In this document: positions 6,501 through 37,243 of the stretch, piece by piece
How the letters are laid out: each line of letters starts with the position of its first letter
How positions within the stretch are numbered: position 1 is the first letter of the stretch
DNA from: Patescibacteria group bacterium UBA6017
GTDB taxonomy: Bacteria > Patescibacteriota > Saccharimonadia > UBA4664
Assembly: GCA_002429485.1 (NCBI GenBank)
Contig: DIZX01000015.1
Location: 256,197-320,196 of the forward strand
DNA length: 64,000 nt
Reading direction: 5' to 3'
Translations under genes and position numbers: made by a program
The notes under the pieces: model-generated
What the model saw: the letters and a program-made list of their open reading frames with translations, nothing else
What the model was told of the DNA's origin: nothing
Databases searched by the model: none

Positions 6501-7430
6501 CTAGCCCTCAACCCTCGCCCGCCAATCCTCCAGCGCCTCGCCCAGCGTCTGTTCCAAGGCAATCCCAGGCTCCCAGCCCGTATCCGCCTTTAGCTTCCCG
6601 TAGTCGCCATAAATCTCCGGCGCATCCACCGGCCTTACCTTGGATTCATCCACCACCGGCTTCAAATCGGAGTTCTTGGCATGCGCCAACAGACCCGCTA
6701 GGATATCGTTTCCGCTCGCCGAGCGTCCCGAGCAAATGTTGTAGGTCTCCCCGTTCTTGCCCTTCTCCAGTAGCGCTATATAGGCTCGTACGATATCTCG
6801 CACGTCGGTGTAGTCCCGCCGAGCGGACAAATTACCCACCGCAATCGTCGTCGCTCCCGACTTTCCGGCCTCGGCCACCTGTTTTGCCAGGTCGGCCACT
6901 ATAAATCCTTCGTTCTGCCCCGGCCCAATGTGGTTAAACGGCCGGGCGATCACATACTCAAACCCCCGTACCCCGTAGTATCCGGCCAGCTCTTCCTGCA
7001 AGCGCTTGCTCACGGAATACGGCGACGCGCACTTCACCCGCGAAGTCTCGGTGAGCGGCAATGGGGAAGTGGGGTCATACAAACTGCCGCTGCTCACAAT
7101 TACAAACCGCGGCTTCGCCCCCTGCGCCACCGCTGCCTCAAATAAGTTCAATTCAATCCCGCCATTCACCTCGATGTAATGCATCGGCGCATCAAACGAC
7201 GGCCCCACCGCCGCCAACCCCGCCAAATGCACCACCCCGTCGATCTGAGTGAAGTCGAGCGTGTCCACCTGGGCCCGGTCTGTGAGATCGAGGCTGGCAA
7301 ACGTCAGCCCTTCGGGTAATTCGCTCTTCCCCTTGCTCCCCGTAGCCATCACTTGATGCCCAGCTTCCAGCAGAGCACTCAATAAATGCGGCCCCACAAA
7401 TCCATTCGCGCCCGTAACTAATACTTTCAT
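6501..7430 (-). CDS. NAD(P)-dependent epimerase/dehydratase family. It may be a GDP-4-keto-6-deoxy-D-mannose reductase (Rmd-like).
   Basis: MKVLVTGANGFVGPHLL has a Rossmann GxxGxxG, the catalytic YSVSK (Y-x3-K) is present, the length is 309 aa, and the gene sits in the same locus as gmd. Confidence 0.65.
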   Translation of the reverse strand: MKVLVTGANGFVGPHLLSALLEAGHQVMATGSKGKSELPEGLTFASLDLTDRAQVDTLDFTQIDGVVHLAGLAAVGPSFDAPMHYIEVNGGIELNLFEAAVAQGAKPRFVIVSSGSLYDPTSPLPLTETSRVKCASPYSVSKRLQEELAGYYGVRGFEYVIARPFNHIGPGQNEGFIVADLAKQVAEAGKSGATTIAVGNLSARRDYTDVRDIVRAYIALLEKGKNGETYNICSGRSASGNDILAGLLAHAKNSDLKPVVDESKVRPVDAPEIYGDYGKLKADTGWEPGIALEQTLGEALEDWRARVEG

Positions 7431-7558
7431 TCGTGCTCCAGATCCGTTTAGGTGTGATAAATCCTATGGTATGAGATATCATAAGAACAGTCTACCCGTG
7501 AGGTGGGCAAGAACCCAGCTCGTAACCAAGATAAATCCGTAAAGGTATACTTCCGCTT

Positions 7559-8362
7559 GTGAAACAATTCTTTAGCAATCTAGCCAATCGATATCGCTAC
7601 TCCCTGATCCTGCTTCGGCAGCTGGTTATTACCGACTTCAAGCTTCGGTACCAAGGCTCAGTACTTGGCTATGTTTGGTCGCTGCTCAAGCCCCTCGCCC
7701 TTTTTTCAATTTTGTACGTCGTCTTCGTCAGATTTCTAAGGTTTGGCGTCAAACCGGTGCCCTTGTTCCTAGGCATTGTGCTTTGGACCTATTTCGCCGA
7801 AGTCACTATGCAGGGTATCAACTCAATCGTGGGTCGCGGCGACCTTTTACGAAAGCTTAACTTTCCCCGCTACGTCATAGTTCTTTCTACCGCCTTTTCA
7901 GCATTGATCAACTTATTCCTCAATATGATTGTGGTAGGAGTCTTCATGGTCTTCACACATACTGCCCTTCGCACAGAAGCCCTTCTGCTGCCGATATTGA
8001 TAGTTGAACTCTTCGTTCTCGCAGTATCGCTGGCATTTTACCTGAGCGCGCTATTCGTTCGCTTCCGGGACCTCAGTCATATCTGGGAGTTAGTTTTGCA
8101 GGCAGCCTTCTATGCGACACCTATTATGTATAGCCTGAATTATGTTCCCGCCAAATATGCCAAATTCCTAATCCTTAACCCCTTGGCCCAAATCATCCAA
8201 GATTCCCGGTATGTCCTCCTCGATCCAAGCTCTCAGACCATTACTAGCTTCTACTCCAACCCCGCCATTCGATTGGTTCCGATTGGTCTTGTCGCAACAT
8301 TCGCTGTAATTTCAGTTATGTATTTCCGCCGTCGGTCACGCTTCTTTGCGGAGGAGGTTTAA
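7559..8362 (+). CDS. wzm: ABC-2 type polysaccharide exporter permease (Wzm/KpsM/TagG family).
   Basis: 267 aa and 6 predicted TM segments. The typical ABC-2 N-terminal amphipathic region is present, and the gene lies immediately upstream of the ATPase. Confidence 0.85.
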   Translation: MKQFFSNLANRYRYSLILLRQLVITDFKLRYQGSVLGYVWSLLKPLALFSILYVVFVRFLRFGVKPVPLFLGIVLWTYFAEVTMQGINSIVGRGDLLRKLNFPRYVIVLSTAFSALINLFLNMIVVGVFMVFTHTALRTEALLLPILIVELFVLAVSLAFYLSALFVRFRDLSHIWELVLQAAFYATPIMYSLNYVPAKYAKFLILNPLAQIIQDSRYVLLDPSSQTITSFYSNPAIRLVPIGLVATFAVISVMYFRRRSRFFAEEV

Positions 8363-8365
8363 GTT

Positions 8366-9562
8366 ATGGGCGCAAAAAGTAACGACATCGCAATTAGCGT
8401 AAATAATGTTTCAAAGAACTTCGTGCTGCCACACGAACGCATTGATACCATCAAAAGCACCTTCGTCCAGATGTTTGGCAGTAGCAACCGGGAGGTCGAG
8501 GTCCAGCACGCGCTTCGCAACATCAGCTTCGAAGTCAAAAAGGGGGAGTTCTTCGGTATCGTCGGGCGGAATGGCTCAGGTAAGAGTACTCTGCTCAAAA
8601 TATTGGCCGGGATATACCAACCATCCCACGGCAAAGTAGATGTGGTCGGAAAACTCGTACCCATCATTGAGCTGGGGGTCGGCTTTAATGGTGAACTTAC
8701 TGGTCGCGAGAATGTCTATCTCAACGGTGCTCTTTTAGGTTTTTCCCGAAAAGAGATGGAAGGCATGTATGCCGATATTGTCGAATTTGCCGAACTTGAA
8801 GAGTTTATGGATCAGAAATTGAAAAACTACTCCTCGGGCATGCAGGTCCGTTTGGCGTTTTCACTGGCTACTCGTGCCCAGGCCGACATTCTCCTCGTCG
8901 ACGAAGTCCTGGCTGTCGGCGATGCCGATTTCCAGCGTAAGTGCTTCGACTACTTTAAAAAGCTCAAAAAAGCTGGCAAGACGGTCGTATTCGTAACCCA
9001 CGATATGAGTGCAGTTCGCGAGTATTGCGGTCGGGCCATTTTGATCGATGACAGCCGTATTGAGGCCAGTGGAACTGCCGAAGAGATCGCCTCTGCCTAT
9101 ACCCGGCTGTTTACCCATAAAGTATCTGGAGTGAGTGGCTCTCAGTCGGATATGCGCTGGGGTGATGGCCAAATTAAGTACACCAAAGTGACTGCTTCAG
9201 TCGATGATGCCAGCAATCAGATCATTATAGATACCACCGTTAAAGCGATGGCCGATGTACACGAGCCGATTTTTGGATTTGCCATCAAGACTGGCGCCGG
9301 CGTAAATATCTTAGGGACTAACACCAAACTCAAGAAGATGTCTGCTAAGTCGATGCGAAAAGGCGAGACAGTTCGGCATATTTGGCGCTTAGATAATATC
9401 CTTGGGGATGGGACATTCTCGGTTTCCGCTGCAGTTGTTGCGGATGATAATGTGACAGTCCACGATTGGTGGGAAGATGCCAGTACGCTGACGATATTTA
9501 GGCCTGAGCACACCCCCTACGAAATCGAGCCCGACATATCCGTTGAGCGAAGTGATGGGTAG
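8366..9562 (+). CDS. wzt: ABC exporter ATP-binding protein Wzt with a C-terminal carbohydrate-binding extension.
   Basis: Walker A is GRNGSGKST, the signature is YSSGMQVRLAF, and Walker B is ILLVDE. About 150 aa beyond the nucleotide-binding domain is consistent with the Wzt C-terminal glycan-binding domain. Confidence 0.9.
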   Translation: MGAKSNDIAISVNNVSKNFVLPHERIDTIKSTFVQMFGSSNREVEVQHALRNISFEVKKGEFFGIVGRNGSGKSTLLKILAGIYQPSHGKVDVVGKLVPIIELGVGFNGELTGRENVYLNGALLGFSRKEMEGMYADIVEFAELEEFMDQKLKNYSSGMQVRLAFSLATRAQADILLVDEVLAVGDADFQRKCFDYFKKLKKAGKTVVFVTHDMSAVREYCGRAILIDDSRIEASGTAEEIASAYTRLFTHKVSGVSGSQSDMRWGDGQIKYTKVTASVDDASNQIIIDTTVKAMADVHEPIFGFAIKTGAGVNILGTNTKLKKMSAKSMRKGETVRHIWRLDNILGDGTFSVSAAVVADDNVTVHDWWEDASTLTIFRPEHTPYEIEPDISVERSDG

Positions 9563-10721: not shown

Positions 10722-11767
10722 ACCAGCTCATTTCATACGCCCAAAATCGCGAAGATATCATTATTGACGCGTTTTTTGATTACAAAGACGATGGGTTCTA
10801 CCTGGATGTTGGGGCCAACTATCCAGTCGAAGCGTCGGTAACCAAACGTTTCTACCAGCGGGGGTGGCATGGTATAAATTTCGAACCGAATGTTAAGTTA
10901 CACGGCCTCCTAACTGCCGACAGACCTCGAGACACGAATCTGTGCCTAGGCATTGGGGCTGTCGATGCCGAAACTACCTTTCGGCAATACGACGCCGCAG
11001 ACGGGTTGTCTACTTTCTCTGAAACCGAAATGCAGACCTTGGACCCAAGCTATGTGGATCTAAAAAAGGATTATGTCGACATCAAGGTCCCGGTTCGCAC
11101 CCTGGCAAGTATAGCCAAGGAGTATTTGGAGGGGGTTCAGGTTGATTTCCTCAAGGTTGATGTTGAGGGTTTTGAGTATGATGTGCTCGCGGGCAACGAC
11201 TGGAATATCCTGAAACCTGAGGTCATATGTATCGAAGCCAACCACGTCGACCGGGACTGGCACCCAATCCTGTCTAGCCACGGCTACTCGCAATTTTTTA
11301 ACGATGGCCTCAACGAATATTATGCCCAAGAAGACTCTCCTCGCCTGAAGGCATTTAAATTCCCCGAAAAAGTCCTCATGAAAGGCAGCGTAGTTCCTTA
11401 TCAATCGCAAAGTGAGCGCAGTTGCGTGGATATTGAGCAACTCATTAGCGAAGAGGCCTCAGTGCTTGTTGAGCCACACGTGGGGCCCAAGAAACGGGCG
11501 ATTTTTCATGCCTATGCACTTCGAAGCGCGGTAGAGGATATATTCGTTGAATCAATTATGCTTTCTCGACGGGCAAAACTGCAGCAAAGTCTAGTGAAGG
11601 CAGTATCCTCATCCTCTACATTACGTCCTAACGCACTAGTAGAGAGACTGGTACCCGTGCCTCAACCCAACTCAACCCGAATTTTGATAAAAAGAGTAGT
11701 ACTAAGAGCTCTTTACCTATTCAATGAACTCACTATGGCGATTGTGGTATATGCAAAAAAAAGTTAA
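10718..11767 (+). CDS. FkbM-family SAM-dependent methyltransferase.
   Basis: YLDVGANYPVEASVTKRFYQRGWHGINFEP resembles the FkbM domain core (DVGAN...G). The gene overlaps the upstream GT by 4 nt. Confidence 0.65.
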   Translation: MNQLISYAQNREDIIIDAFFDYKDDGFYLDVGANYPVEASVTKRFYQRGWHGINFEPNVKLHGLLTADRPRDTNLCLGIGAVDAETTFRQYDAADGLSTFSETEMQTLDPSYVDLKKDYVDIKVPVRTLASIAKEYLEGVQVDFLKVDVEGFEYDVLAGNDWNILKPEVICIEANHVDRDWHPILSSHGYSQFFNDGLNEYYAQEDSPRLKAFKFPEKVLMKGSVVPYQSQSERSCVDIEQLISEEASVLVEPHVGPKKRAIFHAYALRSAVEDIFVESIMLSRRAKLQQSLVKAVSSSSTLRPNALVERLVPVPQPNSTRILIKRVVLRALYLFNELTMAIVVYAKKS

Positions 11768-13370
11768 CACCATTATTTTTGATCTCCGGCTGCTTCAGAC
11801 CGGCGCGTGGTATCGAGGCATGGGCCGCTACACCGCGGCACTACTTGGAGAACTTCCCGGGGTAATTCCAAAGGGGACTCGGTTAGTTGGGCTGTTTGGG
11901 ACTGATCTCCCCTATGCCAAGGAACGAGCCGATGAGGTGAGGAAGATATCTCCAGGGATCGAAACTGTTGTGCTCAAATTTAAAAAAGGCAGCAGCATAC
12001 CCGCAGAACGATATAATGCCGCAGCAACCTCTGCCTGGGTGAAGCAAAATGTCGTCGGCGAAGTTAATTTTATTGCAGCTTCTATTTTTAGTTTCGACTT
12101 TCAACCGTTCCTACTGCATGGAGCACGTAACTCTGTCATCTTCTACGACCTGATTCCTTACAAGAATTGGGATATCTTCGCTAATCATTTTCCACTCGAA
12201 GAGTATTTCAAGAGGTTCTCGTATATATATTCTGCCGACCATCTGTTCGCCATCTCAGGGGCGGTCCGTCAGGATTTAATCGGCCTGCTCGGGGTCAATA
12301 GCGGGCGCATTACCAACATTATGGGCGCGGCCATTCCCGCGGCATTACTCGATGATACCAATGAGCAGGATGACACAGCTCTGCTTGATCAGCTAGCAGG
12401 ACAGCGGTATGTTTTGTTGCCCGGGGGGGCCTCGCCTCACAAGAACATGTATCGTGCAGTTGCTGCTTTTGATATCTTCAATAAGAACTTTGGCGATACC
12501 TTTAAATTAGTTATTAGTTCAAACTACCCTGAACATATGCGACGGAATCTTCAAAATATTTCTCCAAATATTTTATTGAGCGGGGAGGTGTCCTCGGATA
12601 CTTTGGCCAAGATGTATGGCGACGCTGAGGCCGTTATGTTCCCTTCACTCGACGAGGGCCTCGGCCTACCAATCCTTGAGGCCGCTATGCATGGTAAGCC
12701 CGTTGTTTGCTCGGACATACCTGTCTTTAGGGAGTTTTCGGATGATTTTTACTTTTTTGACCCGAAGTCTCTGGACTCGATCGCAAGGGGGCTCCTCCAG
12801 GCCGTAGTTGACGCCAGTGCCGGTATAAACTACGCAGATAAATATAGAGGGATTAACGATAAGTTTTCTTGGCACCAGACCTCAAGGTCATTCGTCGAGG
12901 GGCTTACCGGTTTTCCCTCAAGAGAGCTATCCCGAGACCATCATGATATTCTTATCGAGTTCGACACCGAATATGGCGATATAAAGCAAATAGGGCAAGT
13001 CCTTGAGCAACATGAACTCGGTGCAGTCACACTCTGGGCTGATACTTATATTGAAAAAAATCGGCCACGGCATGAGTTGCCACTCGTCCAGCGTCATTTT
13101 TTGCGCTCTAACGACATTGTTAGCTATGTAGCGTCAAAAGGTTCTCCCGTCGAATCTCGTTCGGTTATCTTTACCGGTAAAAGCCTCTATACCGCATATT
13201 TTGCACTCAAATATGCAAGTAGCATTATTTGCTCGAAGTCGGATATGCGACATGCGATTAAGCGATTTTTAGGGTTCGCCGGAGCGCAACAAGCCTCGGA
13301 ACATGAGATTGATGCCTTAACCAAATTGGTGTCTCCAGAAATATCGAATGTAGGGACAAAAGGTGAGTAA
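11751..13370 (+). CDS. Glycosyltransferase family 4 with a ~150-aa C-terminal extension of unknown function.
   Basis: ORF 11724..13370. The likely start is MQKKVNTIIFDLRLL at 11751. The GT4 motif is SLDEGLGLPILEAAMHGKPVVCSDIPVFREF. Confidence 0.8.
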   Translation: MQKKVNTIIFDLRLLQTGAWYRGMGRYTAALLGELPGVIPKGTRLVGLFGTDLPYAKERADEVRKISPGIETVVLKFKKGSSIPAERYNAAATSAWVKQNVVGEVNFIAASIFSFDFQPFLLHGARNSVIFYDLIPYKNWDIFANHFPLEEYFKRFSYIYSADHLFAISGAVRQDLIGLLGVNSGRITNIMGAAIPAALLDDTNEQDDTALLDQLAGQRYVLLPGGASPHKNMYRAVAAFDIFNKNFGDTFKLVISSNYPEHMRRNLQNISPNILLSGEVSSDTLAKMYGDAEAVMFPSLDEGLGLPILEAAMHGKPVVCSDIPVFREFSDDFYFFDPKSLDSIARGLLQAVVDASAGINYADKYRGINDKFSWHQTSRSFVEGLTGFPSRELSRDHHDILIEFDTEYGDIKQIGQVLEQHELGAVTLWADTYIEKNRPRHELPLVQRHFLRSNDIVSYVASKGSPVESRSVIFTGKSLYTAYFALKYASSIICSKSDMRHAIKRFLGFAGAQQASEHEIDALTKLVSPEISNVGTKGE

Positions 13371-27276: not shown

Positions 27277-28563
27277 TCAGAGCATCCCCTCAAAACGAAC
27301 CTTGATAGCAGATCCAGTTTTGGCGTAGCCAGATAAAAGTTTTTTGATAAGTTTCAGTGGGGTAGCCATTGCTATTAAACCCGGCGCCTGTGCGCCCGTT
27401 AGAGCCCAGTTAGCCACCTGAGCCGAAATGCTTATTGCGGCACGGTCAACATAAATTTCAAAATAGTGAGCGCCAAGTAGGGTCAGGCTCAGGTATGCGA
27501 GTACTGTGATAGCGACACTAGGCGTGTATCCGAAGTGAGGGATAAGGGAAGAGAAGATATAGGTAGAAAGGCCCATAAGGGTAATTTGGTGTAGCAAATA
27601 TAGGCTGAATGATTTTTGCCCCAGATAAACCAACGGCCGCCAGCTAAGCCATTTTTGAACACGCGGTAGTCCAAGGATTGCAACCAGCACAAAAAATGCC
27701 GCAAGGTTATGCCAAAAAAACGTGTTCTCAACCACACTCCACCCTTGAACAAACAACAACTGGTATGTCGTCTGTGCCGGGTTTCCATATGTTGTGTAGC
27801 CTCCTAGGAGTATGCCGGTTGCCAGTAGCCCCCAACCACATCTTCGGATCTGACGAGCCAAGTCAGCACGCCGATCTGCTGTTGCCAGTAAATCGGCCAG
27901 CAGCATACCGACGACAAATCCCAGGTATTCCGTTCTCAGCACCGCAGCAACCAGTGCTAGGTAAATAACCCAGCGTAGCCTGTTCTGCCCAAATAGGGCG
28001 GTTATAGCAAATACCAGAAAAGAACCAAATAACTCTATTTGCATAGTCCAAAGAACGGGGTTGTATATTCCGGAGCCGGAAACGAATGTGCCGAAAAGCC
28101 CCTCGTAAATCGCCTTGCCTATTGAAGGCTCGAACTGAAAATAGTTTGCTGGGCTATGTGTAATGAGCTGGACCCCTGCCCAGTTTTGAAACAGACCAAG
28201 CTTCATTAGTAAGTATGCCAATATAACTGAAACTAGCACTGGTATTGCCAGACGAAGATACCTTTTGGACGCGGCTCGCTCTAGTGACTTCGGGTCACGC
28301 CGTTTAAAAAAAATCCGAGCAAGAACGTACCCGCTCAAGGTGAAGAATATTGCCACTGCGAAATTACCACTTACTAGTACGCCGAGCGGTGAGGTATAAA
28401 ATAAATGCGCGAATCGCGAGTGTGTCGCAATGGGCGGCCCGACAACCATTGCGGGGAAGTAAACCGACGCGGTGTGAAAAAGCACCACCATAAGAGCTGC
28501 TAGCCCCCGCAGACTCTCCAGATATAATAACTTCGCTTTTGGCTCACCGGTATCTTCCATCAT
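27277..28563 (-). CDS. Acyltransferase family 3 membrane protein (O-acyl/acetyltransferase).
   Basis: MMEDTGEPKAKLLYLESLRGLAALMVVLFHT followed by ~10 TM segments. Confidence 0.85.
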   Translation of the reverse strand: MMEDTGEPKAKLLYLESLRGLAALMVVLFHTASVYFPAMVVGPPIATHSRFAHLFYTSPLGVLVSGNFAVAIFFTLSGYVLARIFFKRRDPKSLERAASKRYLRLAIPVLVSVILAYLLMKLGLFQNWAGVQLITHSPANYFQFEPSIGKAIYEGLFGTFVSGSGIYNPVLWTMQIELFGSFLVFAITALFGQNRLRWVIYLALVAAVLRTEYLGFVVGMLLADLLATADRRADLARQIRRCGWGLLATGILLGGYTTYGNPAQTTYQLLFVQGWSVVENTFFWHNLAAFFVLVAILGLPRVQKWLSWRPLVYLGQKSFSLYLLHQITLMGLSTYIFSSLIPHFGYTPSVAITVLAYLSLTLLGAHYFEIYVDRAAISISAQVANWALTGAQAPGLIAMATPLKLIKKLLSGYAKTGSAIKVRFEGML

Positions 28564-28622: not shown

Positions 28623-29834
28623 TTATGGCGCGGGCGCGGGTTCGTAGGCTGAGCGGCTCGACACCCTACGGCGCGGTAGCCGAGCGCGCAAAAAAAGGCT
28701 AGCCGGTGCCTCAAACAGTCGAAAGCTCAGCCAGGCGATGATGAGTGTTGTGACGAAGGTTAGGAGTGTAAATACGGGCGCTGATCGTTGGCCTAGCAGC
28801 TTTAACAGTAAAAAAATCACTAGGGGATGAAGCAAATACATCCCATAGCATAGCGCCCCCGGCAGCGTGAGAAATTGAGGCATTCGATTTGCCCACGGAC
28901 GAGTCCTCGCCACGGTTAAAATTCCGGCTATCGCGAGGCTAAGAAGAGTTGGAGCATAAACACGAGTCAGCGGAAGCTGGGCCAAGCTCAAACCCCAAAA
29001 AACGCAAAACGCCAACACTGCGAACCCTAGAGCCATGCCCAGGGCAGTTTTCCTCCCGAGATTCCGAATCCTAGGATTCGTGCTCGCCAAGAACGCCATA
29101 ACCCCAAATGCTATGCTCTCAAAGCCACTCGGGGAGCCACTAAAACCGAGCCAAAAATTCGTCGGGGCCACGAGTGAAGTTGTTAGCCGGTACAAAATGC
29201 CGATTCCGACAACGAGAGCCATAACGCGCACCAGACGAGCCGCGGAACCCCCGAAGCGCCGCAATATAAATGGGTATAACAGGTAAAACTGTTCCTCAAT
29301 CGCCAACGACCAAAATATGTCCCACTGCAGGCCCCACCCGCTCGCAATGCTCTGGTACGCGATCCGGACCCAATTGAACGCAAATAATGGCAGAGAGACG
29401 AAAAACCAGCCACTGAATTGGGCTTGGGGGTCCCGCAGGACGAAGTCGCGCGCTATGCCTGGGTGAGTTAAGTGAGCGAGCACCGCTGCCGTTAGAACCA
29501 CCACCATCGCAAGTGGCAGTAAGCGAGCCACCCGGCGTCCATAGAAGTCTAGGCTTGAGACAGCTGACAAGTTAGGACTACGAATGGATATTGTCTTAGT
29601 AATAATGAAACCGGACACAACAAAAAATATTGTCACGCCGTAAGCGGAGTTTCCTTCGAGCCGCCCCTGTAGCCAGCCTGGCCAGCCAGCCATGGCGAAT
29701 GAAACAGTAGCGCTATGACCAAATACCACAATCGCAATACTTATAGAACGCAGCAGATCTACGACCGCAAAACGTGACGTCGGTTTGGGTAGCATTAAAG
29801 CTCTCGGCTCACCAGTCTCTTCCATCATAACCAT
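28623..29834 (-). CDS. Acyltransferase family 3 membrane protein, a tandem paralogue of 27277..28563.
   Basis: MVMMEETGEPRA...LLRSISIAIVVFGHS. The 5' flank is nearly identical to that of the downstream paralogue. Confidence 0.85.
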   Translation of the reverse strand: MVMMEETGEPRALMLPKPTSRFAVVDLLRSISIAIVVFGHSATVSFAMAGWPGWLQGRLEGNSAYGVTIFFVVSGFIITKTISIRSPNLSAVSSLDFYGRRVARLLPLAMVVVLTAAVLAHLTHPGIARDFVLRDPQAQFSGWFFVSLPLFAFNWVRIAYQSIASGWGLQWDIFWSLAIEEQFYLLYPFILRRFGGSAARLVRVMALVVGIGILYRLTTSLVAPTNFWLGFSGSPSGFESIAFGVMAFLASTNPRIRNLGRKTALGMALGFAVLAFCVFWGLSLAQLPLTRVYAPTLLSLAIAGILTVARTRPWANRMPQFLTLPGALCYGMYLLHPLVIFLLLKLLGQRSAPVFTLLTFVTTLIIAWLSFRLFEAPASLFLRARLPRRRVSSRSAYEPAPAP

Positions 29835-29906: not shown

Positions 29907-30362
29907 GTGGGCTACTTGAGCAAATTAAGGAGACGTAAGGTTATGAGCGAAAATACACTGCCAGGGCCAGATCGTGACCAGCCAGAGGCCGGCTTCAGCA
30001 ATGCCGCCGAGGCCAGAGACTTGGCGAACGATCCCGAGGTTGAAGCAATTAGCCCCGAATTAGACCCAGAGGCCATCGGCCTGCGCCTCGAAAATGAAGA
30101 CGATCGCCGCAGCATATACACCATTGATGATGTCGACCTCTTTCTGGGTGAACAGTCACCCGTTCCGGGAGGCCTTAAGCGTAAGGTTCGGGAATTATTT
30201 GCCACCTATCCCGATGGTCTCAAGCAGTTTTTCGTTAAAAAGAATCAAGATGACGCCGTGCTGGCCAAGCATCATCATACCGAGGTAGAAACTGGAGGCT
30301 CGGGGGTCGAAACATTTCTATTTACCGACATCCCAGCGGGATCATCGGTTACTACCGAGTAA
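29907..30362 (+). CDS. Hypothetical acidic protein.
   Basis: A 151-aa ORF (possible start MSENTL at 29943) with no recognisable motif. Confidence 0.3.
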   Translation: MGYLSKLRRRKVMSENTLPGPDRDQPEAGFSNAAEARDLANDPEVEAISPELDPEAIGLRLENEDDRRSIYTIDDVDLFLGEQSPVPGGLKRKVRELFATYPDGLKQFFVKKNQDDAVLAKHHHTEVETGGSGVETFLFTDIPAGSSVTTE

Positions 30363-30683
30363 TACGATCTGGGCCGTGCACAGGGGCGCATTCAGTCAGA
30401 CGTTCCTATCGGAACCGAAATGCGCAACCTTCCCGAGACTTATCATGTCATTAATATCCACGGTCCGGCTAGCTTTGTGCAAATGCTGGAGAGCCCCGAT
30501 TTTCATTCTGAAGATCTCATTGCATATGATAGGGATAATTGGTCGAAGGAAGACGGACGCATGGTCGAGGGCACCCTACCTTGGCCTAAGGAAAAGCCCG
30601 ATTCGCCAGAGGCTGCTTAAACCGGTTGCTGAGGCAGCCCCTTTGGTGAAGCGCAACCGAGACAAATCTGATATACTTTCGCC

Positions 30684-31718
30684 ATGATTATTGTGATTAT
30701 CGCTGGCGGATCGGGAACTCGGCTCTGGCCCTTGTCTGTTGGTAACTACCCCAAACACCTACTAAAACTAACCGGTGAGCGCTCGGGAGTCCAAGAGGCC
30801 TATGATCGTGCCAAGCGCATTAGTGACGACATCTATGTGGTCACCGAAGCCAGCCACTCTGAGCATGTGAAAAAGCAATTGCCCGACCTGCCCGACCACG
30901 CTTTCATCGTGGAACCCGGCCGCCGCGGGACTGCTAGCTGTTTTATTGCCGCTCTCGACCGCGTAGCGCGTCATCACGACCTCGACGAGCCGATTGGCTT
31001 CCTGTGGGCCGATCACTTCATCCGCGACATTGACGGCTTCGTGCACGCCTTCAAGACCGCCGAAGCCCAATCCAAGCACCACGGCCGCCTCACCCTAGTC
31101 GGTATTGAGCCGACGCACCCGTCCACCCTATTTGGGTACATTGAAAAAGGCGCCATTATCGACAAAGCCGCCTTCGTGTCCGAAGTCGCCAGCTTCAAAG
31201 AAAAACCCGAGCTCGAGCAGGCACGGGAATTCTTTGCCAGCGGCAAATACCTCTGGAACAGCGGCTACAACGTTGGCTCCGTCAACGTCTTCTTGTCGGC
31301 CATGAAGAAGCACGCTCCCGAGCGCTACGCGGACTTCCAAAGTCTCCAAAAGGTCAAAACCCCCGCCGAATACGATGAAACCTACCTCGGCTTCGAAAAC
31401 GACGCCATCGACTACGCTCTCAGCGAAAAAGTCGACAACCTCATGGTGGTGCCCGCCACCTTCGATTGGCTAGATGTGGGCTCATTCAAGGAATTGTATG
31501 AAGCCAACAATAACGATGGTTCCGGCAACGTGATCACCGGCGACGGGGTAGTGGAGACCATCGAAGTCGAGAACTCCTACATCCGCAACGACGGCGACAA
31601 GCCGATCGCGGTCATTGGCCTCGACAACGTAGTGGTGGTCAACACCCCCAACGGCATCCTGGTCGCTCGCAAAGACCTCTCCCAGCGCGTCAAAGAGATC
31701 GTCAAGAAACTCGCTTAG
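30684..31718 (+). CDS. manC: Mannose-1-phosphate guanylyltransferase (nucleotidyltransferase domain only, no PMI cupin).
   Basis: MIIVIIAGGSGTRLWPLSVGNYPKHLLKL. A TATACT hexamer 6 nt before the ATG suggests a leaderless transcript. Confidence 0.9.
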   Translation: MIIVIIAGGSGTRLWPLSVGNYPKHLLKLTGERSGVQEAYDRAKRISDDIYVVTEASHSEHVKKQLPDLPDHAFIVEPGRRGTASCFIAALDRVARHHDLDEPIGFLWADHFIRDIDGFVHAFKTAEAQSKHHGRLTLVGIEPTHPSTLFGYIEKGAIIDKAAFVSEVASFKEKPELEQAREFFASGKYLWNSGYNVGSVNVFLSAMKKHAPERYADFQSLQKVKTPAEYDETYLGFENDAIDYALSEKVDNLMVVPATFDWLDVGSFKELYEANNNDGSGNVITGDGVVETIEVENSYIRNDGDKPIAVIGLDNVVVVNTPNGILVARKDLSQRVKEIVKKLA

Positions 31719-31757
31719 TAGACGACCACCGTCTGGTTGCTCACCCTAGGGACAACC
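31717..31757 (-). pseudogene. Relic 3'-terminal gene fragment homologous to the C-terminus of gene 33753..35597.
   Basis: Minus-strand reading gives ...LKAPIQVVPRVSNQTVVVY*, against ...MANMNVVPGVSNQTVVVY* at the real gene end. The nucleotide repeat is ~30 of 38 identical. Confidence 0.5.
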
Positions 31758-31775
31758 TGAATTGGCGCTTTCAAC

Positions 31776-31813
31776 AAAAGATAGGGGTGTTTTCGCAAAC
31801 ACCCCTATCTTTT
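31776..31813. terminator. Bidirectional intrinsic terminator hairpin.
   Basis: A perfect 17-bp stem AAAAGATAGGGGTGTTT / AAACACCCCTATCTTTT with loop tcgc. The A/U runs on both sides are part of the stem. Confidence 0.6.
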
Positions 31814-31949
31814 ACGATTCGAGCTCAGAATTAAGGTATTTGCTTCCTTATATTATATATCCTATATATCGGGCACATCTGGAATTCTTGTCAGTTTTCA
31901 GGTGTAAGCTATAGTTTAAGCACAAGCACTATAAATTTCTCGAGGATAC

Positions 31950-33731
31950 ATGGAATCAGAAGCACCAACCACCGATAATCAGGCTCAGCCCGTTCCCGAA
32001 GCGCCCGTCGCCGCTCCAGTCACCGCGCCCGTTGAACCTCCAGCCCAGCGACCGCACAACAAAAAGCCCCTTGTGATCACCCTTGGCGTATTGATCCTTG
32101 CCGGCATCGGCGGCGGACTCTATTGGCAATTTGGCCGCACCCAACCCGCTAAGGTTACTTCGATCCAGGCCAGCCCGTCCGTTACCCCCGTCCCGTCGTC
32201 CACTCCCGATTCTAAAGCCACTCTATTGCTCCAGCGTTTCACTAAGCCGACGACCGGCGAGACCTGGCTCCCGGCCCCCAAGAAGCTGGCCGCTCAAGGT
32301 TTCCTCAAAGACGGCGATACCGATGCCGAGTACTACCAGCTCGGTATGCGCGGCACTTCAACTATCATCTTGTCGGTCGTTTCGCAGGTTGGTGAATGGA
32401 ATATTCTCTACGAGAAGACCGCTGCTGGTAACGTCACGGTCATTGCTCATCCGGACGGCGAGGCGGTTTACAATGCCGACTCAGATACCCAGTACGCCAG
32501 CGCCGTATCGTCGAAAGTTAAGCTCGATACCGTCACGCACTATGATTCGCTCACCATGCCACTCGAGCTCCCACTCGCTAAGGGCTACGTCGTGAAGAAG
32601 CCGACTCATCCCGATTTCGGCAGCCTCATCCGCCCGGTAGTTGCCGGCCAGATCGTCCCCGTCGACACCGTCGTGGCCAAATACGGGGGGAGCACCCTGG
32701 TAAAAACCGAGACGACTTACGCGGACACCAAGCTAACTTCCATCGGCTACAACATGCTGACCGCGGCTCATATGCGCGTCGCCATGTCGTTCATGCCCCT
32801 GGAACTCAGCCTCACTGGCTATCAATGGCAAAGCGGTGCCACGCCCGTGGATACCATTTCGCCCATCAACCGCGGTTGCAGCCTCTCTACCATCTCCGCG
32901 AGCCGTTCCGACGTGCTGACCGCTGCCGACGTCCAGGTGATTGGTAAATCCCCGTCAGGCGTTACGGTCTACGAGCTCAAATCGCTCGATAACCCGCTCA
33001 TGACGAAAGCCTACCAGGAGTTTATCGACTTCTATAAGGGCACCGATGCCAACTCGACACCCTACTTCAATATCACCAAGGCCAAGTTTGCCACCGAGCA
33101 CGGCGTCATCGTTATCAAAGATAATTACGGCCAGTGGCTCGTCTACGCTCGCGATCAGCTCCGACCAATGGGTGGCTGCGCCAAGCCGGTCATTTACCTC
33201 TACCCGCAACAGGCCGAGCAAGTCTCGGTTCGGGTCGGTGCTAGGGTTAAAGTTTCTCTGCCCACCTATGATCCCTTCAAAGGCTGGAATGTCTGGGCGA
33301 CACCGAGCGGGTCCTTGAGCGTAGCAGGTGCTCCGTACGACTCACTCTTTTGGGAGGGTCCCGGCCTTGGCGCCTACCCGGGGATAACCTCCGGTACCGT
33401 GGTGGCCCGGAGTCGGGCCGCCGGTACTATCCGGCAGCAACTTGCCCAACAGGGCCTCGTGGGCCGCGAGATTGACGATTTTATGGCCTACTGGGAGCCC
33501 AAGCTGCCAAATAAACCGTATGTGAGGCTCACTTGGTTTAATACTGGGCAGATGAATGTTCTGGCCCCGTTGGCCATCTCGCCCAAGCCAACTACCGTCC
33601 TGCGCGTCTTCCTCGACTTCGACGGACTCGACTCGCCGATTAATCTTCCGGCCCAACACCTGACCTCGACCCCGCGCCAAGGCTTTACCGTTGTGGAATG
33701 GGGCGGTTTAGCCAACTTTCCTCTCAAATAG
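31950..33731 (+). CDS. Membrane-anchored extracytoplasmic protein of unknown function.
   Basis: A Pro/Ala-rich N-terminal tail is followed by one TM segment (LVITLGVLILAGIGGGLYWQF) and a ~520-aa external domain. Confidence 0.6.
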   Translation: MESEAPTTDNQAQPVPEAPVAAPVTAPVEPPAQRPHNKKPLVITLGVLILAGIGGGLYWQFGRTQPAKVTSIQASPSVTPVPSSTPDSKATLLLQRFTKPTTGETWLPAPKKLAAQGFLKDGDTDAEYYQLGMRGTSTIILSVVSQVGEWNILYEKTAAGNVTVIAHPDGEAVYNADSDTQYASAVSSKVKLDTVTHYDSLTMPLELPLAKGYVVKKPTHPDFGSLIRPVVAGQIVPVDTVVAKYGGSTLVKTETTYADTKLTSIGYNMLTAAHMRVAMSFMPLELSLTGYQWQSGATPVDTISPINRGCSLSTISASRSDVLTAADVQVIGKSPSGVTVYELKSLDNPLMTKAYQEFIDFYKGTDANSTPYFNITKAKFATEHGVIVIKDNYGQWLVYARDQLRPMGGCAKPVIYLYPQQAEQVSVRVGARVKVSLPTYDPFKGWNVWATPSGSLSVAGAPYDSLFWEGPGLGAYPGITSGTVVARSRAAGTIRQQLAQQGLVGREIDDFMAYWEPKLPNKPYVRLTWFNTGQMNVLAPLAISPKPTTVLRVFLDFDGLDSPINLPAQHLTSTPRQGFTVVEWGGLANFPLK

Positions 33732-33752
33732 CGCTAAGAAGTCCTATATCCG

Positions 33753-35597
33753 CTAGTACACGACCACCGTTTGATTGCTAACCCCGGGCACCACGTTCAT
33801 ATTTGCCATCAGCTGATCGGTCGTCCAATAAAACGGCTTGCCCGTCATCGATTCGATAATCCAAAAGCCCAGCGGATTATCGGCGCTGCCCACCACGCCA
33901 AACACCACCCGCGCGTGCGACGACAGCCACGTCTGCACAACCCCGCTCGAGGTATTCCACGCATCGGCTTTCGACGGCGTACTGTGGCCCCAGAACTCCA
34001 CCGGATTGCCCCCGTGCACTTGCGCGCTGATGTAGCTGGCCGGTACGTTAAAGCTCGCCGTGGCCTGGCGGCCGCGACTTTGGGCCTCCTTCGCGATTGG
34101 TCCGGCATGCACCCCGTAGCCCGTGTTGTTGGGGTAGCCGCCTAGATCGCCCACGTACGTCAGGTTCGGGTTGTCCCATAGGTTGTTGGCTTGGTCCCTG
34201 GGATGGGGATTGTACCCGATCGTCGACAGGAGGTCCTTGTCGTCGCCCACATTCACGCCCCGAAACGCCAGCAGCATCCGCAGGGACGCCAGCTCGCAGC
34301 TCATCCGGTACTGGGTCTTGTACATCGGCACCCCCAGCTTGATCGTCTCTGGCAGCGTCGCCAGTGAGCCACTCAGTACGGCGGTATTGGGTAGGCCCCA
34401 AGTGGGTACTACCCCCGGCGCCACCCGAATCGTGTAATTGCTTTGGTACGCCAGGGTTGGCGAGTAGATCATGGTGTTGCCGCTCCACGAGAACGCTCCC
34501 GCCGCTCCGGGATTGAGGCTAAACTTGGCCTGCGCCGAGGCGTGGTCCACGGCCTGGTCGAAGGCCACCTTTATCGGTGCATTCAAGCCCACATCGCCCC
34601 CGCCCGGGCTAAAGCTCGCTCCCACTGCCCCGTTGCTGGCGAACTGGTAGGGCACATCTGCCTCGAGCACCCCGCCCACCTTCGACTTCAAACCGGCTTT
34701 GACCACGTAATTGTAGGTCGTGCCCGGTTTGAGCGCCCCGTCCGTCGGCACGTAGCGGTAGGTGTGATCGTCGACCCAGCTGCCCTTGCCCGCCAGATCA
34801 AACTTGAAGCCCGTTGCGCTCGGCTCCATCGGCTGAGCGAAGACGATGTCCGCGGTCTGCCCGGGCGCAAAGAACCCGCCCGTACGCGCTGCGGCAATTG
34901 CCGGCTGCGCCACCACCGTAAAAACATTGTTGAATAAATTGCGTTTGAGCGGATCGGCCACCCGGGTGTCTTCCAGCGTAAAGGTGTACTTTTCCCCCTG
35001 CTTCAGTGGCATTTGCGGCTCCCACACGAAGGTTTTGTCATCGCTCGAGATCAGCTTCAGCGGCTCCGCGGGCGTTAACGTGGGTTTGAGTTGACGAACC
35101 CCCTGGTTGGCGTCTCGCAGCGTCACGCTCAGCCGGGGCTTCACGCCCACGTCTTTGGCGTCAGCTGCCGGCGAGGTCTTGGCCACCCCCGATGGCAACT
35201 GAACCGTAAACCCTGCCTGGATGTCGCCCAGCCTTTTGCCCGTGACTGCCCGTCTGATGCCCGTAATCTTTAGCGCGTACTTGCGCCCGGCTTCGAACCG
35301 TTTTGTAGGCGTAAAGGCCGCCGCGCTCACCCCGAACACCGTGTGCTCCTGTTTCCACGATCCGGCCACCTGGGGCTCGATCGTGGCCGTATAGCCGGCC
35401 GCCACGTCCTGGCCGAAATCTACCTTGAGCGGCCCGGCCACCAGTACGGCTTGCTGGCTGGCCAGTGCTACCTTGAGCGTTCCCTGTGTGCGCATCCAGC
35501 CAATCACCGCCACGGTTCCAACGAGCACCAGGCCTACGCCTATGCCCGCCGTTACCGGTCGTTTAGAGATTATCTGCATGCACCCTCGATGCTCCAA
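33753..35597 (-). CDS. Secreted/anchored protein with Ig-like segments and a C-terminal C39-like (papain-fold) peptidase-like domain.
   Basis: An N-terminal TM segment is present. The C-terminal motif QYRMSCELASLRMLLAFRG (Cys) ... HARVVFGVVG (His) resembles the peptidase_C39-like family. Confidence 0.55.
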   Translation of the reverse strand: MEHRGCMQIISKRPVTAGIGVGLVLVGTVAVIGWMRTQGTLKVALASQQAVLVAGPLKVDFGQDVAAGYTATIEPQVAGSWKQEHTVFGVSAAAFTPTKRFEAGRKYALKITGIRRAVTGKRLGDIQAGFTVQLPSGVAKTSPAADAKDVGVKPRLSVTLRDANQGVRQLKPTLTPAEPLKLISSDDKTFVWEPQMPLKQGEKYTFTLEDTRVADPLKRNLFNNVFTVVAQPAIAAARTGGFFAPGQTADIVFAQPMEPSATGFKFDLAGKGSWVDDHTYRYVPTDGALKPGTTYNYVVKAGLKSKVGGVLEADVPYQFASNGAVGASFSPGGGDVGLNAPIKVAFDQAVDHASAQAKFSLNPGAAGAFSWSGNTMIYSPTLAYQSNYTIRVAPGVVPTWGLPNTAVLSGSLATLPETIKLGVPMYKTQYRMSCELASLRMLLAFRGVNVGDDKDLLSTIGYNPHPRDQANNLWDNPNLTYVGDLGGYPNNTGYGVHAGPIAKEAQSRGRQATASFNVPASYISAQVHGGNPVEFWGHSTPSKADAWNTSSGVVQTWLSSHARVVFGVVGSADNPLGFWIIESMTGKPFYWTTDQLMANMNVVPGVSNQTVVVY

Positions 35598-36855
35598 TCA
35601 TAGCAGGTTCTCGATAGGGCTTGGGTTCCGCGACCGGCTTTGAGGCCGACTTTCGGGGTGACATGATTTTCCGCTGCACCCACCCGGCCAGCCGCATACT
35701 CGGCTCGTCGACGTGCCTCGTGTAGATATCAGCCGCAATTACCACGATTACCAGGTACGCCGCTCCCGTGACCCCCAGGCTAAAGGCGTAACCGTGGCTG
35801 ACGTTGAGCGCCGCAAACATGTACGAGCTGATCGTCCCCAGCACCAGCAGGTGCAGCAGGTACATCGAAAACGACACCCGGCCGAGGTAGCGCAGTGGCC
35901 GGCTGGCGAAGACCGTTTTAAGGGCGGGGGAGTACAGTACCGCACCCAGCAGCAACGCCGCCCCCACGATATGCGTCAGAATAAATACCACGTTCGGATC
36001 GGCACCCTGCCACCCCAGCGCGCTGTATATTGTGCTCGTGGCTCCCGGAATCGGCGCCGCTCCCAGTCCCAAGCCCGCCAGCGCCAACCCCGCCGTGATC
36101 GGCCACGCCAGCTCTTTTGGTGACCAGCTTCGCGAGGTGACGTCGCACAGGGCAATCCCAAGCACAAACGCCAGGTAGTACGAGTTCCAGCTCGCCACCA
36201 TGAGCACCAAATACACCAGCCACCGCAGCCGCAACTTGCCAAACAGCGCCAGGAAGGCAAATACCAGCATTGAGCCCAGAAACTCCACCTTCATCGTCCA
36301 CAGCGCGTTATTGAGCACCCCCGGCTCCGAATTGCCGACCAGTATTCCGTACGCCCCGTAATACACCGCCTCCCCCAAGCTCACTGTCCGCGGCCAGAAA
36401 TTCGCCAGCCATGACGACCCGCTGATCGCCGCCGCCGGGTCGCTGAAGTTCAGCCCGAACCGAATAATGGCCCACGCCAGCAGTACCGACCCCAGAATCG
36501 GCGGCATCAGCCGAAAGTAGCGCTTCACCGCCGCCTTGCGCACCGCCGCCGTGTTGCCGGTCTGAAAGAACGCGTAGCTCAGTACGTACCCGCTCAAAAT
36601 AAAGAAGATACACACCGCAAAGTTGCCCGCTACCAGTAGCTGAAGGGGAGTCGTGTAAATTGTTCGCTCAATCGCGAAGTGATTCGCCCCCGCCCCGCGC
36701 GTGGCAAACACCAAGAAAACATAAGCAAAATGATGAAACACCACAATTAGGGCAGCCAAGCCGCGTAGGCCGTTTAGGTATTCGAGCCTAATTTTTCCAA
36801 CCGCGATTAGGCTCGGCTCGCATCGCCTCGGTTTCATCTGGACGAGCATAGTCAT
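35563..36855 (-). CDS. Acyltransferase family 3 membrane protein (third paralogue).
   Basis: LEYLNGLRGLAALIVVFHHFAYVFL plus multiple TM segments. The start is uncertain: ORF track 36900, likely 36855 or 36837. It overlaps the 3' end of the upstream cupin gene. Confidence 0.8.
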   Translation of the reverse strand: MTMLVQMKPRRCEPSLIAVGKIRLEYLNGLRGLAALIVVFHHFAYVFLVFATRGAGANHFAIERTIYTTPLQLLVAGNFAVCIFFILSGYVLSYAFFQTGNTAAVRKAAVKRYFRLMPPILGSVLLAWAIIRFGLNFSDPAAAISGSSWLANFWPRTVSLGEAVYYGAYGILVGNSEPGVLNNALWTMKVEFLGSMLVFAFLALFGKLRLRWLVYLVLMVASWNSYYLAFVLGIALCDVTSRSWSPKELAWPITAGLALAGLGLGAAPIPGATSTIYSALGWQGADPNVVFILTHIVGAALLLGAVLYSPALKTVFASRPLRYLGRVSFSMYLLHLLVLGTISSYMFAALNVSHGYAFSLGVTGAAYLVIVVIAADIYTRHVDEPSMRLAGWVQRKIMSPRKSASKPVAEPKPYREPAMIGASRVHADNL

Positions 36856-37243
36856 CTTCAAGCCGCAGCGTGGTGCCCAGCTCGGGAGTGGAGGCCTCAA
36901 ATACGTCGCAGTCGCCCAGTCCGATCAATCGGTGGCGCTGCCCCAGTGCGGTGGTGTAGCCCACGCCCGGTTTGAGCTCAATCTGCTCCATTTCACCGGC
37001 CGCATTTTCGATCAGCACGCCCGCCTGCCCGCGCAGCACGCACCAAGTTTCGGTCTTCTGGTCGTGCGCCTGCAGGCTCAACCGTGCCCCGGAGTTAATG
37101 TGAATAATTTTAGCTGCATATGGCGCATCCGCAGCCGTCAGCAGAATCTCGTAGCCCCACGGCTTGTCGGTACGTTTGGCGGTTGCATCAGTCTTAAACC
37201 CGGACTTGTCGATCGAATTCAAAAAATCTTTGGCGTCAGCCAT
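36788..37243 (-). CDS. Cupin protein of the mannose-6-phosphate-isomerase type II / ManC C-terminal domain family.
   Basis: KPWGYEILL...KIIHINSGARLSLQAHDQKTETWCVLRGQAGV...GQRHRL is the PMI-type cupin signature. GGGAG lies 8 nt before the ATG at 37243. Confidence 0.7.
   Translation of the reverse strand: MADAKDFLNSIDKSGFKTDATAKRTDKPWGYEILLTAADAPYAAKIIHINSGARLSLQAHDQKTETWCVLRGQAGVLIENAAGEMEQIELKPGVGYTTALGQRHRLIGLGDCDVFEASTPELGTTLRLEDDYARPDETEAMRAEPNRGWKN

Follow-up and report, generated by a model that had tools for sequence, protein, structure and literature searches.

Genes and features at the manC junction

In the window, i.e. the whole stretch of 64,000 nucleotides that we analyzed, a manC-like gene and a C39-like gene point towards each other on either side of one further gene. 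The features of this region are:

30684..31718, plus strand: manC-like gene, 344 aa, sugar-1-phosphate nucleotidyltransferase (Pfam)
31715..31774, minus strand: leftover of the native C39-like 3' end, 19 codons LKAPIQVVPRVSNQTVVVY plus stop TAA, non-coding
31716-31756, minus strand: well-preserved core of the leftover (repeat copy 1)
31776..31813, no strand assigned: perfect 17-bp inverted repeat with a 4-nt loop, terminator-like, at the left edge of the insert
31888..31915, plus strand: sigma-70-like promoter match upstream of the 593-aa gene (TTGTCA, 16-nt spacer, TATAGT)
31950..33731, plus strand: cargo gene, 593 aa (open reading frame)
33753..33794, minus strand: current functional tail of the C39-like gene, VVPGVSNQTVVVY plus stop TAG (repeat copy 2)
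33753..34325, minus strand: 3' ~190 codons of the C39-like gene, with discordant phylogeny (maximum chi-square, bootstrap)
33753..35579, minus strand: C39-like (YvpB-type) gene, 608 aa from ATG (NCBI gene call in the same-strain locus L011)

The manC-like protein matches NTP_transferase (2e-38) and ManC_GMP_beta-helix (6e-13) in Pfam and is 96.5% identical in amino acids to its orthologue in L001. The C39-like protein has a membrane anchor, Ig-like Big_5/Big_10 domains, and a Peptidase_C39_2 domain; its mechanical open reading frame runs on to a TTG at 35597. The names given to both genes by a sequence-only reading of this DNA agree with these domains (NTP_transferase and ManC_GMP_beta-helix for the one, Big_5 and Peptidase_C39_2 for the other), and the gene that it placed at 31950..33731 is confirmed as an open reading frame of 593 aa.

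The 593-aa protein is predicted to start with a disordered stretch, to cross the membrane once (helix at residues 40-61), and to carry a beta-rich ectodomain. Its gene is the only open reading frame of the insert. The protein has no match in Pfam or NCBIfam and is a member of a widespread, uncharacterised family whose genes lie on the chromosomes of many Saccharibacteria, with varied neighbours. Judging from structural models, this family appears to be membrane-anchored and confidently folded yet structurally unmatched, and no recognisable immunity or other fold was found in the cargo protein. Its best relative is 64% identical and lies in an unrelated context, and a scan of genome contigs with the protein returned three loci only, none of them near a C39 gene or manC. 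We found no recombinase or transposase in the insert or within ~10 kb, and no inverted repeats pairing the insert ends. The GC content of the insert is similar to that of its neighbours, with no clear anomaly.

The arms of the hairpin (31776-31792 and 31797-31813) are 100% complementary, with an A-tract on one side and a T-tract on the other, and the fold of 31700-31830 reaches -44.9 kcal/mol (z = -4.7). The hairpin is unique in the window and was found elsewhere in same-strain loci only. A consensus terminator scan did not call it, because the T-run lies within the stem. What had been described as a perfect 17-bp hairpin terminator holds as a hairpin, and its role as a terminator gets no backing from the scanner. 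The promoter-like match fits at 10 of 12 positions, and matching to the consensus alone gave 1 site where 1.2 are expected by chance. A scan of 31400-34100 with Rfam returned only a chance miRNA match (E = 0.16).

The stranded gene tail and the empty site

The longest direct repeat within 30000-37000 pairs 31716-31756 with 33754-33794 (33 of the 41 nt identical, 80%), and the longest exact run common to the two copies is 11 nt, ACGACCACCGT. A degenerate 26-mer fitting both copies has 2 sites only in the 64-kb window and no match in 100 shuffles. Read on the minus strand, the first copy gives ...VVPRVSNQTVVVY at a C-terminal end, directly before a stop. The full minus-strand translations are QVVPRVSNQTVVVY for the leftover copy (stop 31715-31717) and NVVPGVSNQTVVVY for the present C39-like tail (stop 33753-33755), and a six-frame scan of the window found just two VVPxVSNQTVVVY-like peptides, each followed by a stop codon. 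By tblastn, the leftover lengthens to 19 codons, LKAPIQVVPRVSNQTVVVY, at 31718-31774. These searches and shuffles bear out the sequence-only reading in its claim of a gene tail duplicated at manC and at 33753; the repeat of ~35-38 nt that it reported is real, with a corrected length of 41 nt and weaker similarity extending to 60 nt.

No part of the C39-like family is more conserved than the C-terminus, as seen from the invariant columns, and on sequence comparison the VVPRVSNQTVVVY-type ending is a conserved, family-specific end of Saccharimonadales C39-like (YvpB-type) proteins. It occurs nowhere else in the window, which disposes of the earlier worry that the similarity might reflect a generic sorting motif. 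A stop codon upstream of the leftover leaves only a 27-aa open reading frame with a TTG start (31715-31798); we rejected it as a gene, the TTG lying in the hairpin loop without plausible ribosome-binding spacing. The segment 31715-31774 should be annotated as a pseudogene fragment and not as a small gene. No further C39-like remnant was found in 31650-31960, the native gene end being reduced to its last 60 nt.

Comparison of synteny among relatives, which had been proposed as a check, favours an insertion. In a related genome (L003/L004) the C39-like gene and manC are convergent, with a 4-nt overlap of their stops and nothing between them, i.e. the site is empty. The L003 tail aligns to both copies in the window (HSPs 30667-31744 and 33754-37111), and ~2 kb of new sequence in the window is missing from the empty site of L003. 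The stop of manC in the window (TAG, 31716-31718) overlaps that of the leftover (31715-31717) with a geometry identical to that of the C39-like gene and manC in L003, in agreement with the earlier claim that a 3' fragment of the C39-like gene had been left behind. The closest relative (L001/L002) has an unrelated 2.4-kb insert at the same junction, a mobile-looking segment with Bro-N and Replic_Relax domains flanked by ACTAG. We found no long flanking repeats around this insert and no leftover in the 46-nt spacer beside manC of L001 (Smith-Waterman against shuffles, p = 0.05-0.5). Because the site is empty in L003/L004 and holds a different insert in L001/L002, the 593-aa gene, along with its hairpin and promoter-like site, was gained by insertion in the lineage of the window. 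The distant C39 homologues P0005, P0006, and P0020 have other neighbours, the pairing of C39 and manC being confined to a close clade. Assemblies of the same strain (L009-L012), with an identity of at least 99.96%, are uninformative as to polymorphism.

Over the 39 nt on which the tail comparisons are based, the two copies show 7.0 differences at 10.2 synonymous sites and 1.0 at 28.8 non-synonymous sites, whereas 6-14 non-synonymous differences would be expected if the leftover had decayed neutrally after a duplication in situ (P <= 0.012 down to 4e-8). Since the differences are almost all synonymous, both tails diverged as working coding sequences, which speaks against a local duplication and requires a foreign or paralogous tail. 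At synonymous sites the current tail is closest to L005 (3.5/10.5). The leftover most resembles the tail found in the sister lineage L001: its nucleotide core matches that tail at 27/29 nt, the L003 tail at 27/30, and the window's current tail at 27/31. The leftover is the displaced native tail, and the present tail is most likely a diverged allele that came with the insert. The sequence-only reading had left the gene as inserted or duplicated: synteny supports the former, and the synonymous-only divergence and the mosaic C39 gene described below go against the latter.

Mosaic structure of the C39-like gene

The maximum chi-square method places a breakpoint in the C39-like gene at about residue 425, near 34325 (chi2 of 58 against a null maximum of 23; 0/2000 permutations, p < 0.0005), coinciding with the start of the Pfam C39_2 domain at residue 422. 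In the 5' part (~425 codons) the window groups with P0002 in 100% of the bootstrap replicates, a grouping that falls to 0% in the 3' part, where P0002 joins P0003 (97.5%) and the window groups with P0004 (68%). When the window is left out, the 5' and 3' trees agree and place P0004 outside P0002 and P0003. Between the window and L001, pS rises from 0.54 in the 5' part to 0.66, the saturation level, in the 3' part, a rise that faster protein evolution alone would not explain. Among the informative sites of the 3' part, 17 unite the window with L001 and 18 unite it with L003, so the former excess is gone. The protein closest to the window's 3' part is at most 71% identical. A scan of metagenome contigs with the C39 family returned 46 loci, all distant (27-54% identity), with neither manC nor a homologue of the 593-aa protein beside any of them.

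Distances to the outgroups are equal for the window and P0002 in the 5' part, and in the 3' part they are larger for the window in 22 of the 26 cases. The offset of P0002 to the outgroups is the same in both parts and that of the window shifts; since the shift concerns the window only, the window, rather than L001, appears to be the recombinant. The 3' parts of L001 and L003 are unusually close (pN 0.119), with a pN ratio of 0.49 vs ~0.70 for other pairs, where a single event in the window predicts less closeness. Hence, an additional event in L001, or else rate heterogeneity, has to be assumed. With the breakpoint at the start of the C39 domain, a lineage-specific rate change in that domain could mimic part of the signal. 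The segment 33753..34325 would be derived from a donor and would contain the homologous anchor for the import.

Probable recombination with diverged DNA and its alternatives

We consider that the locus was probably shaped by a one-sided homologous recombination in which a foreign C39 3' end entered together with the hairpin and the 593-aa gene, about 2.55 kb in all. Originally, the C39-like gene and manC would have been convergent in this Saccharimonadales lineage, with overlapping stop codons. Foreign DNA from a related but clearly diverged lineage of Saccharibacteria would have carried the terminator-like hairpin, the promoter region, the 593-aa gene, and the 3' ~570 nt of the donor's C39-like gene. 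A homologous crossover inside the conserved C39 peptidase domain, near 34325, and a second joint without homology, ~41-60 nt before the resident stop codon (31757-31775), would follow the pattern of homology-facilitated illegitimate recombination (HFIR). The resident ~510 nt between the joints would thereby have been replaced by ~2.55 kb of donor DNA and the last 60 nt of the resident gene stranded beside manC, non-coding; with a new end from the donor, the C39-like gene would have remained whole. We infer a joint arrival of mosaic segment and insert, presumably through natural transformation. The breakpoint, the switch in topology, and the rise in pS are what a homologous anchor in the C39 gene would leave, and a replacement agrees with the 60 nt left of the native end beside the ~2 kb that are new relative to L003. 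Scans of genome and metagenome contigs revealed no donor for the insert or the C39 3' part.

As in HFIR, homology to a conserved gene would anchor one end only, the other being joined without it, and a longer foreign DNA replaces the resident DNA between the joints, giving a mosaic anchor gene and new cargo. The illegitimate joint of HFIR typically shows 3-10 nt of microhomology. Unlike the observed cases, the event here is reconstructed from a natural genome, and the anchor has a low identity of about 65-80% nt, which lies at the limit of what usually allows efficient RecA-dependent anchoring, or past it. In natural transformation, HFIR has been described for Acinetobacter, S. pneumoniae, and P. 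stutzeri (de Vries & Wackernagel 2002, Prudhomme et al. 2002, Meier & Wackernagel 2003, all cited by PMC5361080). For Vibrio T6SS and Rhs loci, a displacement of this type, with the 3' ends of genes left behind as fragments, has been put forward (PMC5361080). In Rhs, CDI, and Vibrio cholerae T6SS effector loci with orphan 3' fragments, too, a new 3' end and cargo are recombined in via a conserved 5' part, and the former 3' end survives as a fragment further downstream (PMC5361080). However, those systems pair a variable C-terminal toxin with a downstream immunity gene, whereas here the C-terminus is conserved, the domains are Big_5 and Peptidase_C39_2, and the cargo shows no recognisable immunity fold. 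The displaced piece is only 60 nt long, without a functional domain, and there is a single displacement, not an array.

Among the alternatives, the insertion could be real and the discordance of the C39 3' part a separate matter of faster peptidase-domain evolution or of exchange in L001, the two tails stemming from two events, for instance with gene conversion by a paralogue from another place in the genome. This would suit a breakpoint at a domain boundary, the closeness of L001 and L003, and the fact that L001 also has an insert at this junction. We find it unlikely, since synonymous divergence is likewise up in the 3' part, the sites uniting the window with L001 lose all their excess, the offset of P0002 stays constant while the window shifts, and the coding-type divergence of the tails independently calls for a foreign or paralogous tail. 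It is still less probable that a small element integrated site-specifically, at an att site within the final ~60 nt of the C39-like gene, restored that gene with an end of its own while displacing the native tail, and later lost its integrase and all but the 593-aa gene. The precedent would be e14 and phage 21, which Hill, Gray and Brody reportedly described in 1989 as integrating into E. coli icd. These elements bring a substitute icd 3' end that differs mostly at synonymous sites, and the native end survives beyond the insert as a pseudogene fragment; the reaction is integrase-mediated, uses an exact core site, and inserts a full prophage. A substitute 3' end and a stranded native end would have their counterparts here, in an attL/attR-like layout of diverged direct repeats around the cargo, with mainly synonymous differences, an exact 11-nt stretch in both copies, and a junction also used by the mobile-looking insert of L001. 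Yet there is no prophage, and no integrase or recombinase in the insert or within ~10 kb; the insert amounts to one gene, whose family has chromosomal members, in varied surroundings, in many Saccharibacteria; the discordance spans ~570 nt, far past a 60-nt tail borne by an element; and the L001 insert lacks such a repeat.

A local event, in which the 41-60-nt gene end was duplicated in place (by a long target-site duplication or slippage) as the 593-aa gene moved in from the same genome, the copies then drifting, would account for the direct repeat around the insert and for a GC content near that of the neighbours. It appears very improbable given 7 synonymous differences to 1 non-synonymous, where neutral decay expects 6-14 of the latter, and given that terminal inverted repeats and a transposase are missing; moreover, known target duplications are far shorter than 41 nt. 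A transposon or IS insertion was rejected as well: the 41-nt repeat is long and imperfect, and the insert has neither inverted repeats at its ends nor a transposase domain. Finally, we give practically no credence to a chance resemblance, or a generic C-terminal motif, linking copies without common history. The common peptide is indeed short (13-19 residues), but shuffles gave no matches, the motif is confined to the C-termini of the C39-like family, and its position and stop-overlap geometry are identical to those of the intact L003 gene; the alignment to the empty site refutes this explanation. Taken with the mosaic host gene, the coding-type divergence of the tails points to recombination with DNA of another lineage rather than to the enzyme of a mobile element.

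The event is of a known kind, a clear yet ordinary footprint of gene acquisition, and it leaves current understanding unchanged while offering a tidy case study and a useful annotation of 31715-31774. It is a clean natural case of the gain of a surface-protein gene in an uncultivated Saccharibacteria genome, in which a datable leftover can be set beside relatives whose site is empty or differently occupied, and it flags a widespread family of membrane-anchored proteins as mobile cargo in a cell-envelope locus. Recombination with another lineage fits the recently shown natural competence of the phylum, cultivated Saccharibacteria being naturally competent (PMC10633639). More tentatively, and in our view less likely than not, the C39-like 3' end abutting manC, in a cell-envelope glycan locus, might be a recurrent landing pad in soil and permafrost Saccharimonadales, where sister lineages would have independently gained different cargo. 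On the side of the window, this would be a structurally novel 593-aa surface protein, with the end of the peptidase domain swapped too; on that of L001, an ACTAG-flanked mobile module with Bro-N and Replic_Relax. One-sided recombination driven by transformation would then regularly remodel the cell surface of these reduced-genome epibionts.

The gene tail repeated beside manC

The locus pairs a manC-type nucleotidyltransferase gene with a large minus-strand gene that encodes Ig-like Big_5/Big_10 domains and a Peptidase_C39_2 domain. Homologues of this C39-like protein come from Saccharimonadales and Saccharibacteria, some named YvpB or C39 family peptidase at source. The neighbours (acyltransferase-3 paralogues, a cupin-type mannose-6-P isomerase fragment and glmS) indicate a cell-envelope glycan locus. 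The three acyltransferase-3 paralogues lie at 27277-28563, 28623-29834 and 35563-36849. In same-strain assemblies one or another of the three is called shorter or split (L009 3540-4469, 309 aa; L010 13614-14910, 134 + 313 aa), which suggests single-base frameshift variants or homopolymer assembly errors. The C39-like gene, from its ATG at 35579, shares 17 nt (35563-35579) with the 3' end of the acyltransferase gene upstream. This overlap recurs in two related loci, L001 and L005, so the two genes are probably co-transcribed.

The elements discussed here are:
30684-31718, plus strand, manC
31715-31774, minus strand, leftover C39-like tail
31776-31813, perfect 17-bp hairpin
31888-31915, sigma-70-like match (number found no higher than the scan's chance expectation)
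31950-33731, plus strand, 593-aa ORF (the cargo)
33753-35579, minus strand, C39-like gene

Directly past manC, which stops with TAG at 31716-31718, the minus-strand translation is ...LKAPIQVVPRVSNQTVVVY and ends in TAA (31715-31717); the intact C39-like gene ends in ...LMANMNVVPGVSNQTVVVY*. The sequence-only reading had described a repeat and a duplicated gene tail enclosing a perfect 17-bp hairpin and the 31950..33731 gene, and all of these were recovered. The longest direct repeat within 30000-37000 joins 31716-31756 to 33754-33794 (33/41 identical); a degenerate 26-mer covering both copies has no match in the window other than these two sites, and no match in 100 shuffles. Likewise, a six-frame scan of the window found tail-like peptides only at the leftover and the current tail. 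Weaker similarity carries the leftover to 19 codons (31715-31774), up to the hairpin, and 31650-31960 holds no further C39-like remnant. That the shared peptide might be a generic sorting motif does not hold: the C-terminus ...NMNxxPGVSNQxVVV[YF] is conserved in 30 homologues, with S607, N608, V611 and V613 invariant, and is thus the end signature of the C39-like family.

The repeat search revealed no inverted repeats pairing the insert ends, and neither the insert nor the DNA within some 10 kb of it encodes a recombinase or transposase. A 22-nt inverted repeat (31550-31571/33612-33633, 86% complementary) has its arms in manC and the 3' part of the 593-aa gene. Its spacing (2040 nt) nearly equals that of the direct repeat, but it is probably due to chance, since many similar pairs were listed.

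The junction in related genomes

We compared synteny across four related lineages. In L003/L004, whose C39 protein is 66% identical, the C39-like gene and manC are convergent, with stops overlapping by 4 nt and nothing between them, the same geometry as the leftover and manC in the window. One blastn match spans manC and continues into the leftover (window 30667-31744, L003 12857-11780) and another starts from the present C39 stop (33754-37111, L003 11808-8392). The L003 tail therefore matches both copies, the classic picture of an empty site, in agreement with the earlier proposal that a 3' fragment of the C39-like gene was left behind. The closest relative, L001/L002 (manC 96.5% and C39 77% identical in amino acids), has a different 2.4-kb insert at the same junction, made up of an 85-aa gene and genes for a Bro-N and a Replic_Relax protein; L005-L007 have a 228-nt spacer there. 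More distant C39 homologues have other neighbours, and four other same-strain assemblies (≥99.96% identical) share the window's arrangement. The empty site and the relatives' arrangements thus polarize the change as an insertion in the window's lineage, supporting the suggested insertion between manC and the C39-like gene.

The L001 insert (7088-9449, 2.36 kb) is flanked on both sides by ACTAG (7083-7087 and 9450-9454), which in the empty site holds both overlapping stop codons. These flanks look like a 4-5-bp target-site duplication, and so point to a different insertion mechanism at the same junction. This insert also contains a 35-nt repeat (7370-7404/8094-8128, 83% identical), the first copy of which includes a perfect 14-bp palindrome, ATTCAACTGTACGA/TCGTACAGTTGAAT, and which could be an operator or origin-like site of a mobile module. 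In the L005 spacer (11619-11845) several short motifs recur (GGTACTCC three times, TAAGTACGCT twice); the spacer could be a small element in decay or what is left of a different event at this junction.

The cargo protein has no Pfam or NCBIfam match. Its family counts at least 184 members across Saccharibacteria, and its gene has a different neighbourhood in every genome examined. A membrane-anchored protein of 315 aa, encoded on IMG/VR contigs (L067 4593-5540; likewise L068-L071), shares 38-41% identity with cargo residues ~410-588 in its C-terminal domain, and in L067 its gene has a serine-recombinase-like ORF on either side. The same domain is therefore also carried by mobile or viral DNA beyond Saccharibacteria.

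Origin of the two tails and of the mosaic gene

Compared across the last 13 codons ahead of the stop, the two tails differ by 7.0 synonymous changes in 10.2 sites and by 1.0 non-synonymous change (R/G) in 28.8 sites. Had they started identical, with the leftover drifting neutrally, 6-14 non-synonymous differences would be predicted at that synonymous distance; the probability of one or fewer is 0.012 to 4e-8, the value varying with how conservative a pS is assumed. Local duplication is thus rejected, and of the earlier "inserted or duplicated" only insertion stands. Since the differences are mostly synonymous, the tails diverged inside working genes and one derives from another allele. In nucleotide sequence the core of the leftover is nearest to the L001 tail (27/29), then to L003 (27/30), then to the window's current tail (27/31); the current tail is nearest to L005 at synonymous sites (3.5/10.5). 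On this reading the native tail survives, displaced, as the leftover, and the current tail is most likely an imported allele.

The C39-like gene itself is a mosaic. The identity of its protein to the L001 homologue, P0002, falls from 82% over residues 31-450 to 67% over 451-614, where the homologues P0003 (71%) and P0004 (70%) are as close or closer and P0002-P0003 identity rises to 83%. A maximum chi-square scan of first and second codon positions in the window, L001 and L003 placed a breakpoint near residue 425 (~34325; chi2 58, the highest value in permutations being 23, 0/2000). Informative sites shared by window and L001, L001 and L003, and window and L003 number 154/33/43 before it and 17/53/18 after it. 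Neighbour-joining bootstrap support for pairing the window with P0002 drops from 100% for the 5' part to 0% for the 3' part, where P0002+P0003 (97.5%) and window+P0004 (68%) group instead. Window-L001 pS also rises from 0.54 to 0.66, which argues against a mere acceleration of protein evolution. Without the window sequence the two trees are congruent, and in the 3' part the window is further than P0002 from 22 of 26 outgroups, while in the 5' part both are equidistant; these comparisons suggest that the window rather than L001 is more likely the recombinant. However, the breakpoint coincides with the Pfam C39 domain boundary (residue 422), L001 and L003 are closer in the 3' part than a single event predicts, and all compared lineages are deeply diverged (dS ≥0.6).

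A proposed single import event

The simplest account that would cover all the evidence is that a segment of about 2.55 kb, bounded by 31757/31775 and ~34325, was imported in one step, bringing with it the hairpin, the 593-aa gene with its promoter region, and the 3' end of the donor's C39 gene. One end would be anchored by homology inside the conserved peptidase domain; the other would be an illegitimate joint, 41-60 nt short of the resident stop codon, that left the native tail stranded next to manC. Products of this kind are described for homology-facilitated illegitimate recombination, which has been put forward as the source of 3' gene fragments displaced at Vibrio T6SS and Rhs loci (PMC5361080). 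Natural competence is reported in cultivated Saccharibacteria (PMC10633639). The collections searched yielded no donor. An integrase-mediated event of the e14/icd type, with later decay of the element, is a possible alternative, but it leaves the ~570-nt exchanged tract unaccounted for. The event is of a well-documented kind, in a poorly studied phylum, and so of modest interest.
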